This document shows, one piece after another, positions 23,300 through 35,038 of a stretch of DNA of 64,000 nucleotides (its first letter is position 1; each line of letters begins with the position of its first letter). The stretch is from Escherichia coli (GTDB lineage: Bacteria > Pseudomonadota > Gammaproteobacteria > Enterobacterales > Enterobacteriaceae): NCBI RefSeq assembly GCF_030013595.1, contig NZ_CP122768.1. One strand, written 5' to 3'. The notes beneath the pieces are model-generated. The model saw only the letters and a program-made list of their open reading frames with translations, did not search any database and was not told where the DNA came from. A program made the position numbers and the translations under genes.

Positions 23300-23401
23300 T
23301 ATTCTCCGTAATCATCAGTGATGATGGTTAAGATGGATTTTCTTATTTGATATGGCTTTAGTAGCGGTATCAATATCAGCAGTAAAATAAGTTTTCCCGA
23401 T

Positions 23402-27029: not shown

Positions 27030-27708
27030 TTTTCAAATGCGCCTATAAGGCTCTCTTACCAGCCGCGCCCTAACAGGCGCACACGATCTGACATTTGCAT
27101 CCAACTTCGTTACTTACGGCCCGTAAACGGGCTGCCCGGATAGGGAATCGATAACTGATCTCCCATTTTATCCTCTTCAAGCTGGTGCTTTATGTAATCC
27201 TGTATCTTCGCCGTGTTCTTACCCACTGTATCGACGTAGTACCCTCTGCACCAGAACTCCCTGTTCCTGTATTTGAATTTCAAATCACCAAACTGCTCGT
27301 AAAGCATCAGACTGCTTTTCCCTTTCAGATATCCCATAAACCCGGATACGCTCATTTTGGGCGGGATCTCCACAAGCATATGGATATGATCTGCACAGCA
27401 TTCAGCTTCCAGAATCCGTACGCTTTTCCACTCACACAGCTTTCTCAAAATACTGCCTATTGCTCTACGCTTCTCTCTGTAGAACACCTGTCTTCGGTAT
27501 TTTGGCGCAAAAACTATGTGATATTTACAGTTCCATCGGGTGTGCGCTAAGCTCTTTTCGTTCCCCATTGGGACCCCCTTTTGATTTCTTGTTTGACACT
27601 TGCAGTTGCCAGACCGCAAGGTGTTTTAACAAATCAAAAGGGGTTTTAATAACTGGCTCAAAGCTGAAAGCTTTCCGGAACCCCCAGCCTAGCTGGGGGT
27701 TTTCTGTG
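27030..27708 (-). mobile_element. IS200-family insertion sequence (IS200/IS605 family); ends approximate
   Basis: HUH tnpA ORF; left end (high coordinates) has two hairpins typical of IS200: cccccagc..gctggggg terminator-like hairpin and a long stem-loop occluding the tnpA RBS; lies between convergent luxS and emrB terminators. Confidence 0.8.
27110..27568 (-). CDS. tnpA: IS200 transposase TnpA (HUH single-strand transposase)
   Basis: 152 aa from MGNEKSLAHTRWNCKYHIVFAPKYRRQ; HxH motif (HIHMLV) and catalytic Tyr (RGYYVDT). Confidence 0.9.
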   Translation of the reverse strand: MGNEKSLAHTRWNCKYHIVFAPKYRRQVFYREKRRAIGSILRKLCEWKSVRILEAECCADHIHMLVEIPPKMSVSGFMGYLKGKSSLMLYEQFGDLKFKYRNREFWCRGYYVDTVGKNTAKIQDYIKHQLEEDKMGDQLSIPYPGSPFTGRK

Positions 27709-31222: not shown

Positions 31223-31558
31223 TTATATAATCGCCATCACTTTCCAGGCGAGCCCGTAGGCCAGCGCACTAAGCAGTGTTGGGATGATAATGCTGCGTGT
31301 TTTATAGAAACTGGCACCCAGTACCGCGAAGCCGACCAGCGTGGGCACGAAACGGCGTGTATCGTGCATCACTTCTGGTGCGGTAGAGACAACCAGCAGA
31401 GCGCATATCGAGGCGATGCCAATGGTGTCGAGCAATATGCCTATCGCGCCACGTTTGGTTGGGCGGGCATTACCCACACGCAGGCGCAGCGGCAAATAGC
31501 GGAAGCAATAATTCGCCGCGCCAACCAGTAACCCAAGCAGCAGAACCTCATAGCTCAT
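31223..31558 (-). CDS. ygaH: L-valine exporter small subunit (AzlD-like)
   Basis: 111-aa membrane protein overlapping ygaZ stop. Confidence 0.85.
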
Positions 31559-32285
31559 CGGGCGCTCCTTGCCAGAATGCCTGGATTAACGCAGTGAGGC
31601 AGCCACAGACAATGCCTGCCAGAATGGCGACGGGAATAGAAAATAGCGTTACGCCTGCAAGGGCACCAACTAACGCTGCGGTAACGCAAAGAGATTGTTT
31701 GCGCTGGAAAGAGGCGAGCAGGAAACTCATAAAGAGTGCCGGAAGCATAAAACCTAATGCTGCTTCAACGGCGGGATATCCTTGCAGCAAGCCGCTGCCG
31801 GAGAATGCCCCTATTACCGTACCAAATACCCACGATGACCATGAACTGAAGGCAATGCCGATCATCCAGTTCTCGCTCCAGCGGCGATTATTGCGTACCA
31901 GTTTTGCGGTTGCGGCGGCAAAAACCTCATCCGTCAGGCCAAATGCCCACAGGGCGGTTTTCGATTTTTGCAGACGCTGAATAATACGGCTACGCAGTGA
32001 CGGGCCATACAAAACATGGCGAACATCCATTGCCATGACGGTCAGTGCAGCAACCCACAAACTACTCCCGGCTGCCAGCATCGCGGTAATGACGAACTGG
32101 CTCGCGCCTGCATAAATGATGCAGGAGAAAAAAACGCTTTCGAGAGGAGAGAATCCCAGACGGGTCGCATTCAGACCGAACGCAAAGGCCACCGGAATAT
32201 AACTAATAACAATCGGTAAACTGTCTTTGCATCCTTCCATGAAGGTCGCCGAACCAGGAGCAGGCTGTGGAGTAGGGCTTTCCAT
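31548..32285 (-). CDS. ygaZ: L-valine exporter large subunit (AzlC-like)
   Basis: 245-aa polytopic membrane protein. Confidence 0.85.
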
Positions 32286-32408
32286 AGAGTGTACGCTTAA
32301 CGATTGTTAATATTATAAATAGACTGAATGAATATCTTAACCTTATCAGACTGATGGGCTTCTTAACACCCTTATAAGTGTAAAGCCACGAAAACGGTTG
32401 CTGATTGC

Positions 32409-33593
32409 TTAATTTGCGGCTTCCTGACGATGAAAACCTCGCCACCAGACCAGTAAGTTAACCAGGGCAATCGTCGCGCCAGCCAGACAAACGCCAGCCC
32501 AACCGCCATGTTGCCAGGCTGAGGCTGAAATTAGCGAACCGGCGGCACCGCCAATAAAGTAGCTGGTCATGTAACCTGCGGTCAGGCGATTACGCGCATC
32601 AGGATGTATTCGATAAATTACCGTCTGGTTAGTGATATGCACGCCCTGCACGGTGAGGTCCAGCACCAGGATGCCGATAATCAGCGCCAGTACGGAGGTG
32701 TGACCAAACCAGATTGCCAGCCATGAAAGTAACAGCAGAAGCAGACCGAAAGTTGTTGTGTGGTGCGATTTGCCCTTGTCGGCAAAACCGCCCGCCGGAC
32801 GAGCGCCCAACGCTCCGGCAGCTCCCGCAAGTCCAAACAGACCAATTACACCATCGCTGTAGTTAAAAGGTGGAGCGGCAAGCAAAAAGGCCATTGAGGT
32901 CCAGAGAATGCTGAAGTTGGCAAAGGTCAGGCAGCCCAGCAACGCGCGGGTGCGCAGAATTTTATCGCTGATAAACATGCTGAAAACGGAACCAAGCAAC
33001 TGTGGGTAGTTGAGGTGGGTTTCTGATTTCATTTGTGGCAGACCACGCCATAATGCCAGCGCCATCAGTGCCATTAACACCGAGGCAACCCAAAAGACGG
33101 TGCGCCAGCCGCCGAGGTTTGCCAGCAACCCGGCAACGGTTCGTGCCAGCAAGATCCCCAACAGCAGCCCGCTCATAATGGTGCCGACCACTTTGCCGCG
33201 TTTGTCTGGTGAAGCCAGCGTCGCTGCCAGCGGAACCAGAATTTGTGCCACGACCGAGAATAAACCGGTCAATGCCGTACCGAGGATCATCATCGCCAGT
33301 GACTGACTGCTGGCAGTGATTAACATACCGCCCGCTGCCAGTAAGGTCATCGAGACAATCAGGCGGCGGCGTTCAAACATATCACCGAGGGGAACAAGAA
33401 ACAGCAGACCTGCGGCATAGCCCAACTGCGCGGCGGTAACAATAAAGCCCGCCGAACTGGCGGAAAGGGAAAAGTTACGCGCGATGGTGTCGAGTAATGG
33501 CTGGGCGTAATAGTTACTGGCTACCGCCAGACCGGTGGCGATAGACATCAGCACGATCAGCGCCGGGCTAAGCTCATGGTTTGTTTTAGTCAT
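32409..33593 (-). CDS. ygaY: MFS transporter YgaY, intact 12-TMS ORF
   Basis: 394-aa hydrophobic ORF with MFS-type loop motifs. Confidence 0.8.
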   Translation of the reverse strand: MTKTNHELSPALIVLMSIATGLAVASNYYAQPLLDTIARNFSLSASSAGFIVTAAQLGYAAGLLFLVPLGDMFERRRLIVSMTLLAAGGMLITASSQSLAMMILGTALTGLFSVVAQILVPLAATLASPDKRGKVVGTIMSGLLLGILLARTVAGLLANLGGWRTVFWVASVLMALMALALWRGLPQMKSETHLNYPQLLGSVFSMFISDKILRTRALLGCLTFANFSILWTSMAFLLAAPPFNYSDGVIGLFGLAGAAGALGARPAGGFADKGKSHHTTTFGLLLLLLSWLAIWFGHTSVLALIIGILVLDLTVQGVHITNQTVIYRIHPDARNRLTAGYMTSYFIGGAAGSLISASAWQHGGWAGVCLAGATIALVNLLVWWRGFHRQEAAN

Positions 33594-34045
33594 TATTTTT
33601 GTTCATCAGGTGATGATTAAGCTGGGAATCAATAATAGCGGATGTTTATGAATGTGGGGCGAAAGATAGATTGTTAAAATGTGCGGGTAATGGGGAGAGG
33701 GTATTTGAAGGTGAAATATGCCACTAAGGCAAATGTTACGTTCACTTCCAGATTATAGCTACTTTGTCACTATTTTGCTGGTGAACGTGCCAGGGTGGCT
33801 CAGTCGCCACCACCCTGGCGACCCAGGCTTTTGGCACAAAATCGCCGCTACGCGGTACATTCGACTTATTTCTTACGGCTATCGGGTACGGGCGCGAGGT
33901 AACATCCCTGTAAGACGCGCCCTCGCCGCGCATCCCTGCGCGTCGCCCCGGCCTTCAGAAAACGTCTCATCGATTTTCAGCCGGATTAAAACCATCGCTG
34001 CAATTGTTTTACTCACATGAGCATTATCTGCGCGGTTATCAATAT

Positions 34046-35038
34046 TTACTTCTGCGCTGCCAGCGCCTCATTCACCCAGCCATCGAACTGCTGCTGGTGG
34101 GCTTTGATCCAGCCATCAACGTGGCCCTGAATATCGCCTTCTGAGGCTTTGCCGTCATGCATAATGGCGTTCTGGGCGTTAATATCTGCCACTGGTAACT
34201 GCATAATGGCAAACAGTTTCGCTGCTGCCGGGTTTTTCTCGGCCCAGGCTTTGTTGGCAACGATATGCATGGTACTGACCGGGAAGCCGTAATTCGCGCC
34301 ATTCGGCAGTTTGGTATCGGCATTTTTATCGCCCGGCAGTGCGGAGAACGGCACCTGCAACCAGACCACATCTTTCCCCGGTTTCAGTTCGTTACTCACC
34401 CAGTACGGCGTCCAGGTGTAGTAAAACACCGGCTTACCCTCTTTGTAACGACTGATGGTGTCAGCCATCATCGCTGCGTAGTTCCCCTGATTATGCGTCA
34501 CGGTATTGGTCAGTCCATACGCGGCAAGCTGGTGGTTGATCGCACCTTCGCAGCCCCAGCCAGGGTTACAGCCGGTTAAATCCGCTTTACCGTCGCCGTT
34601 GGTATCGAACAGTTTGGCGATCTTCGGATCTTTCAGTTGCGCGATGTTGGTGATTTTGTACTGGTCGGCAGTTTTCTTATCGATCAGGTAACCCTGTGCC
34701 GCGCCGTTAACAAATACTCCTTCACGATAAAATTTCTTATCGCCACCGGCAGCTTCGTACATGTTGTCATGCAGTGGCGTCCAGTTCACTGCGGTGAAGG
34801 TTGCATCGCCGGAAGCAAGCGAGGTGTAGCCAACGTTGTAATCCACTTCGCTGGGTTTATTGACGGTATAACCTAATTTCTCCAGCGCGCGGCTGACCAG
34901 CAGCGTCTGGAAAGTTTCTTCGGTGATGGTGCTCTGAACCGGATTAACAGTAATGCCTTTGCCCGGCAGGTCGGCAGCAAAAGTTTGTGTAGAGATAAGC
35001 GTGGCAAACGCTGTCGCAAAAAGTACGCTATGTCGCAT
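34046..35038 (-). CDS. proX: Glycine betaine/proline ABC transporter periplasmic binding protein
   Basis: 330 aa from [28 protein letters not shown] (signal peptide). Confidence 0.95.

Follow-up and report, generated by a model that had tools for sequence, protein, structure and literature searches.

An intact ygaY encoding a constrained MFS transporter is the norm in Escherichia coli, and the K-12 pseudogene is most simply explained by loss of one 7-bp repeat unit

Does Escherichia coli carry, at the ygaY locus, a transporter gene that the model strain K-12 has lost, and if so, how was it lost and what might the protein do? An earlier note on the 64,000-nt window (the whole stretch of DNA analysed here) had described an uninterrupted 394-aa MFS permease between ygaZ and proX. 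Both the coordinates and the description are correct, with the addition that the gene lies on the minus strand (Table 1); the open reading frame (ORF) listing gives a single frame with an ATG start and no internal stops. The ygaY stop is separated from ygaZ by 123 bp. Downstream, ygaZ is followed by ygaH, then mprA/emrR and emrAB, and upstream lie proX, proW and proV. Location between proX and ygaZ, orientation and identity to the K-12 gene all place the ORF in the ygaY orthologue group (b2681). The pig-faeces isolate HCP5S3_I2, which is 100% identical over window positions 32000-34000 and ~99.95% identical over the remaining window, carries at the same position an intact ygaY CDS (WP_000169332.1) annotated as 'MFS transporter'.

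Table 1. Features of the ygaY locus and related elements (window coordinates unless a locus is named)
Feature	Position	Strand	Basis
ygaZ, AzlC-type L-valine exporter subunit; downstream of ygaY, same orientation	31548..32285	-	ORF list and annotation
ygaY CDS, intact, 394 aa + stop, 12-helix MFS transporter	32409..33593	-	ORF list, Pfam, PGAP, AlphaFold2, Foldseek
K-12 lesion site, gene nt 256-270, codons 86-90, TM3	33324..33338	-	Pairwise alignment with K-12
ygaY-proximal upstream region, 92 bp, conserved with K-12	33594..33685	-	BLAST homology to 33685 and alignment
Strain-variable part of the spacer, 360 bp, without a K-12 counterpart (K-12: 99 bp of different sequence)	33686..34045	-	BLAST
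proX, glycine betaine/proline ABC transporter binding protein; upstream of ygaY, same orientation	34046..35038	-	ORF list and annotation
Further copy of the spacer element	L003 2495-2745	-	
Further copy of the spacer element	L011 1990-2250	-	
Further copy of the spacer element	L016 1501-1637		

The K-12 gene occupies the same locus with the same neighbours. In MG1655 (NC_000913.3), ygaY (b2681) is annotated as a 1178-bp pseudogene between proX (b2679) and ygaZ (b2682); the jump in numbering from b2679 to b2681 would fit a former ygaX/ygaY split. The two genes share ~96% nucleotide identity (~98% over the wider region), and in a global alignment they differ by ~41 substitutions and a net gap of 7 bp at gene nt ~256-270. 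Frame 0 of the K-12 gene, which is shorter by one GCGGCAT unit, reads ...MTLLAAC and ends at a stop after 88 codons, whereas the frame in the window runs on for 394. The remaining ~305 residues of K-12 are readable only in another frame, where they match the window protein throughout; overall, the encoded residues are the same except for T4P and the lesion site. The 7 bp missing from K-12 fall in codons 86-89, within the third helix (H75-94) of an AlphaFold2 model of the protein. The statement in the earlier note that the K-12 gene is disrupted is thus borne out by the pseudogene annotation, the 7-bp deletion and the premature stop, and pairwise alignment showed the K-12 copy to be frameshifted, so that the ORF seen whole in the window is not intact there.

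Orthologues of 394 aa with 93-100% identity occur in E. coli, Shigella, E. fergusonii, E. marmotae, E. albertii and Citrobacter, and in Citrobacter the gene order nrdF-proVWX-ygaY-ygaZH-mprA-emrAB is kept. By the Nei-Gojobori method, dN/dS between the window gene and the K-12 allele is 0.017, from 39 synonymous and two nonsynonymous differences, both of the latter in one codon; against the Citrobacter gene it is 0.040 at a dS of ~1.16. Taken together, these values show that ygaY is under strong purifying selection. They also lend indirect support to the earlier suggestion that the window strain would keep a function lost in K-12. The window ygaY is an ordinary wild-type allele of a stand-alone gene, set in the conserved block nrdEF-proVWX-ygaY-ygaZH-mprA-emrAB.

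Intactness is not peculiar to this strain. When 5,418 hits to the whole K-12 pseudogene were sampled in even steps, four rows spanned 1178 bp and the next 55 spanned 1185 bp; the 1185-bp span in 55 of 55 full-length non-K-12 rows is a statement of length only, and some of these genes may hold point nonsense mutations. The K-12 junction is missing from ~93% of complete E. coli genomes. An intact ygaY is the norm for the species; K-12 is the odd one and the window strain is unexceptional. Individual rearrangements at or near the gene were seen as well: one sampled row, PCP06021, has an apparent large deletion running from within ygaY towards ygaH, and insertion sequences interrupt the stretch corresponding to window positions 32000-34000 in Res13-Lact-PER13-34 (IS110 family) and in 118UI and MSB1_7C (IS4).

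The family of the protein is clear at the level of the superfamily. YgaY matches Pfam MFS_1 (PF07690) at E = 2.6e-41 and 142.2 bits against a cut-off of 33.4; Sugar_tr (6.5e-13) and MFS_4 match more weakly, both above their own cut-offs. At curated cut-offs, no NCBIfam model matches. The best full-length NCBIfam match is PRK03545 (sugar efflux, the SotB model), with 63 bits against a cut-off of 401, followed by Cmx/CmrA (52 against 400), Bcr/CflA (50 against 201-303) and EmrD (37.5 against 479). An exhaustive profile-free search returned 8,983 representative clusters at E<=1e-3, of which 1,142 reach E<=1e-30; among the matches listed, full-length YgaY-like members are almost all ~400 aa and align end to end, and those sampled from this wider subfamily are named no further than 'MFS transporter'. 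One match, a 596-aa ENA metagenome protein (P0001), covers the whole of YgaY at 73% identity and 1095 bits, an unusually high score that may reflect a fused or duplicated gene call. An alignment of 64 family members with 35-57% identity has the signature residues Y28, Q31-P32, Q56, Y59, G70-D71, R151, D272, D312 and R336; D312, in predicted TM10, and R151, in predicted TM5, are conserved in 91-98% of these diverged sequences. We take D312, an acidic residue conserved across the family, to be reminiscent of Asp307 of NorA.

The AlphaFold2 model, built from the 64-member alignment, is all-helical with a pLDDT of 95 and a pTM of 0.93. It has twelve TM helices in two six-helix bundles and superposes on 12-TM MFS structures at TM scores of 0.8-0.9; helices were counted on the model, the Kyte-Doolittle segments being too fragmented for the purpose. 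The top 12 Foldseek matches in the PDB are SotB, MdfA, NorA and two entries labelled just 'Protein A'. Best among them is SotB (YdeA), the E. coli DHA1 sugar efflux protein (6KKI, 6KKJ, 6KKK and 6KKL), with TM scores of 0.84-0.90 and an rmsd of 2.3-2.6 A over ~380 residues. Both proteins have 12 helices in ~390-400 residues, and SotB is the sole full-length match in a PDB sequence search, where all matches were distant (SotB 3.6e-4; the N-terminal half of GlcP 3e-8); their identity is ~17%, however, and YgaY lacks strict motifs A and C. The multidrug:H+ antiporters MdfA and NorA, also DHA1, share the 12-helix fold (TM 0.78-0.84, 15-18% identity), but the acidic D35 in TM1 is not conserved in the YgaY family, which has no known drug-resistance phenotype. 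Other MFS families follow at TM scores of 0.75-0.83, including the symporters DgoT and GlpT at 0.75-0.79, so that having DHA1 members as the nearest structures is weak evidence of kinship. The Pfam match, more than 7,800 homologues, the dN/dS values of 0.017-0.040 and the pLDDT of 95 establish that ygaY is a real gene and no chance ORF.

Two sequence motifs were looked for in YgaY. For the TM2-TM3 loop, a pattern search with the strict form of MFS motif A, G-x3-D-(R/K)-x-G-R-(R/K), found no match in YgaY, which has the degenerate version G70-D71-M-F-E-R-R-R; G70 and D71 occur in at least 90% of the family and R75 in 81%, and a counterpart in the second half lies around D272. Antiporter motif C, G-x3-G-P-x2-G-G, is likewise absent: TM5 reads G142-LLL-G146-ILLAR151, with neither G-P nor G-G. 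Because motif C is missing and the threshold of every DHA1 model is missed, we describe YgaY as DHA1-like in fold and rejected its filing with DHA1 (TCDB 2.A.1.2; SotB, MdfA, Bcr, EmrD, NorA).

What YgaY might transport, and in which direction, has to be judged from such likenesses. YgaY would work as an exporter driven by the proton-motive force, through DHA1-like antiport, with a small organic metabolite or a xenobiotic as its substrate; Asp312 and Arg151 are candidate coupling residues. Export is suggested because the best full-length neighbours in sequence and structure are exporters and because the family has a stand-alone, context-free genomic habit; against efflux, for which the case is weak, weigh the NCBIfam scores far below cut-off, the absence of strict motifs A and C, and the superposition of DgoT and GlpT. 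On balance we put the chances of such proton-coupled export at about even. Sugar export in particular finds no backing. Neither the curated family models nor the literature names a substrate, and no conserved neighbourhood points to one. The surroundings of five diverged homologues (46-57% identity) have no genes in common and offer no substrate clue; they hold an AraC-type regulator with an FMN-binding protein, an OYE-type flavin oxidoreductase, flagellar genes and a TonB-dependent receptor.

The main rival to export is import, in which YgaY, as a proton symporter and perhaps in connection with ProU, would take up a nutrient or a compatible solute. The N-terminal half matches symporter models (GlcP 3e-8, TIGR00895 1e-21, Sugar_tr 6.5e-13), antiporter motif C is missing, symporter structures superpose well too, the place beside proVWX is kept in Citrobacter, and K-12 ygaY transcripts have been published as slightly increased after hyperosmotic shock. 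However, the symporter matches are limited to the generic N-terminal half, the best full-length matches in sequence and structure are the exporters SotB, MdfA, NorA, Cmx and Bcr, and synteny with proU is lost in homologues with 46-57% identity. We regard import as possible but doubtful.

A different objection is that ygaY, intact as it is, might be effectively silent in wild strains, through H-NS or poor translation, and that its loss from K-12 was inconsequential. The conserved upstream region presumably holds the translation start region of ygaY and any proximal promoter, and its signals are faint. The Shine-Dalgarno match before ygaY is weak (30 nt upstream were considered), no consensus sigma-70 promoter lies upstream, and a promoter and terminator scan of positions 32200-34150 found sites no more numerous than in shuffled sequence, with none upstream of ygaY; the sole good promoter-like site, at 32340-32312, is in the gap between ygaY and ygaZ. 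The papers found treat ygaY as a cryptic pseudogene of K-12, use it as a neutral control or a site for integration, or describe it as the anchor of an H-NS bridge to the downstream regulatory element (DRE) of proU (proVWX). Both the H-NS/StpA-associated bridge between the proU DRE and ygaY and low transcript levels have been reported in K-12, which grows well without the gene and in which ygaY deletions serve as neutral controls or for integration. Against silence, dN/dS values as low as these over a dS of up to ~1.2 require a protein that is produced and of consequence in nature, and the full length is kept in all 55 of the non-K-12 rows sampled above. We judge silence in wild strains unlikely, and hold to a wild-type gene that is maintained by selection.

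A more speculative thought, which we rate as quite improbable, is that YgaY is a functional partner of its neighbours, for example an exporter of a compatible solute, or of a metabolite related to branched-chain amino acids, beside ProU and the valine exporter YgaZH. If it were true, osmoadaptation or metabolite overflow in K-12 would be atypical for the species.

The origin of the K-12 lesion can be read from its closest intact relatives. At the lesion site the window allele has GCAGCGGGCGGTATG, encoding A-A-G-G-M with the ancestral Gly88 and lacking any tandem repeat; Citrobacter, at the protein level, likewise has AAGGM. The ygaY gene of the dog isolate D9 (locus L004, 856-870) reads GCGGCATGCGGCATG at this site, where CTG-GCGGCAT-GCGGCAT-GTTG forms a perfect 7-bp tandem repeat, and K-12 reads GCGGCATG. 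The repeat-bearing allele encodes AACGM, Cys88 replacing the ancestral Gly88. Removing any one 7-bp register from the D9 allele gives exactly the K-12 gene, and beyond the repeat unit the two agree at every position of the gene and of its flanks (191 bp upstream, 123 bp downstream). The intact alleles nearest to K-12 are 99.4% identical, that is, 1178 of 1185 positions. A 97-mer with the intact repeat has exact matches in 680 genomes, whose sources include river water as well as human, poultry, pig, dog and cattle hosts. K-12 being D9 minus one unit, and the two-unit 97-mer being so widespread, K-12 appears to have lost one unit from a common wild allele. In the proposed sequence of events, an allele in a sub-population would have gained the perfect repeat (GCGGCAT x2), changing Gly88 to Cys; K-12 would then have dropped one GCGGCAT unit, most simply through replication slippage. 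Lack of this unit shifts the frame inside TM3 and ends translation after 88 codons.

The one-unit form is narrowly distributed. A 90-nt query across the K-12 junction matched at 99% or more in 354 of 5,411 genomes and at 80-95% in all others, as is expected from alleles that carry the extra 7 bp. A 40-nt query, which is unable to seed on undeleted alleles, matched in 353 of 5,426 complete genomes. When 60 of these 353 were drawn at even spacing, all 60 fitted K-12, and all that could be identified by name or source are K-12 derivatives; the sample includes MG1655, BW25113, C600, J53, JM109, TG1, MC4100, S17-1, RV308 and EPI300, as well as NEB strains and O16:H48 strains from mouse gut. A frameshift that is widespread in nature was rejected accordingly, the lesion being carried only by genomes that fit K-12 (60 sampled of 353). 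The K-12 pseudogene thus seems to be a recent, single-event lesion specific to one lineage, for which slippage is the simplest explanation. That the K-12 allele has no excess of amino-acid changes again points to a recent lesion.

The repeat was also considered as a phase-variable switch and rejected, no natural one-unit isolate having been seen in the sample of 60 and two units making a short tract; as a weaker variant of low probability, GCGGCAT x2 may be a slippage-prone on/off locus for ygaY in the ~680 wild genomes that carry it. It is highly improbable that the D9-type allele is instead a revertant, with the K-12 form as the older broken state, a 7-bp deletion coming first and a later 7-bp duplication leaving Cys88 as a scar: such alleles do differ from the common sequence by a tight cluster of changes exactly at the lesion site, and deletion of GGGCGGC from the common type followed by duplication of GCGGCAT would, by sequence reasoning, yield them in two events, but every one-unit genome seen fits K-12, the two-unit form has exact matches in the 680 diverse wild genomes, and K-12 and D9 are otherwise the same over ~1.5 kb, so that K-12 appears nested in the two-unit population. 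Loss of one unit in the ancestry of K-12 remains the reading we prefer. We found no statement of this exact origin in the ygaY papers that we read.

The spacer between proX and ygaY differs as well, measuring 452 bp in the window and 191 bp in K-12; the full 452-bp version occurs in 543 of 5,426 genomes. Its strain-variable part holds a structured, dispersed repeat resembling TwoAYGGAY, with a core at ~33745-33995 on the minus strand, which is the ygaY strand. The element folds with a minimum free energy of -99.4 kcal/mol (z = -3.2) into two adjacent hairpins with CAGGGAUG loops (CA(G/U)GGAUG) and a long 3' hairpin. The Rfam model TwoAYGGAY (RF01731) matches at 33847-33975 with 28.2 bits, below its gathering threshold (GA) of 43 (E = 0.023 in a search of the 452 bp), and across the repeat element the scores run from 28 to 31.5 bits against the same threshold. 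Elsewhere, diverged copies sit in the asmA-yegH and mmuM-tauA intergenic regions and, in K-12, in the gap between aqpZ and lysO; compensatory changes affect 13 of 71 predicted pairs among three copies of the element. Of 5,426 E. coli genomes, 5,424 have related sequence, at a median of three places per genome and up to eight, and in 30 of 30 sampled rows no annotated feature lies under the match. TwoAYGGAY was described in 2010, graded as a probable RNA and not as cis-regulatory, and the summary table of that paper gives it no function. It is a thought of low probability that this strain-variable element changes how far transcription reads through from proVWX into ygaY, or how well the two are insulated.

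A few other features of the window and its relatives were noted. BLAST mapping revealed indels between the window and HCP5S3_I2, so that collinearity of the two was rejected. An ORF of the IS200/IS605-type tnpA lies at 27110-27619 (-) between luxS and emrB and is annotated as an IS200C transposase in HCP5S3_I2. A length difference of ~40 bp from HCP5S3_I2, at ~23300-23341, falls in a tandem tRNA-Arg array downstream of csrA and a tRNA-Ser gene. A 750-aa ORF at 53524-55776 (-) is open in the window; its HCP5S3_I2 counterpart is a pseudogene with an internal stop, annotated as 'alpha amylase C-terminal domain-containing protein'. HCP5S3_I2 also has an IS3-family insertion of ~1.3 kb at window ~56115-56122, absent from the window, at a site that adjoins a tRNA-Ile gene upstream of ypjCB and ypjA. 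At 57168-58622 (+) the window has an intact 484-aa ORF, called 'YpjCB family protein' in the near-identical HCP5S3_I2; K-12 ypjC is presumably a pseudogene, in which case ypjC would join ygaY as a gene intact here and broken in K-12.

Taken as a whole, the locus is very probably best explained by a wild-type MFS allele under selection and a K-12 copy broken by a single slippage lesion, with a protein that would, at about even odds, act as an exporter driven by the proton-motive force. No observation speaks against the structural and evolutionary side of this reading. That the protein is intact (it has a RefSeq accession) and that the K-12 gene is a pseudogene (RefSeq and the literature) were already known, and the finding is in this sense correct and ordinary; what is added is small, namely the origin of the lesion in the loss of a single GCGGCAT unit, the observation that it appears confined to K-12, and estimates of selection. 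The analysis thereby dates and explains the K-12 lesion as what appears to be one slippage event in a 7-bp tandem repeat. Our search of the ygaY literature found no paper that reports a function for YgaY: a conserved and constrained gene was never studied because the copy in the model strain is dead and came to serve as a neutral control or integration site. A K-12 strain with the 7 bp restored would form, with its parent, an isogenic pair for a substrate search. The case is of modest weight, as one more reminder that K-12 is an incomplete reference for E. coli.
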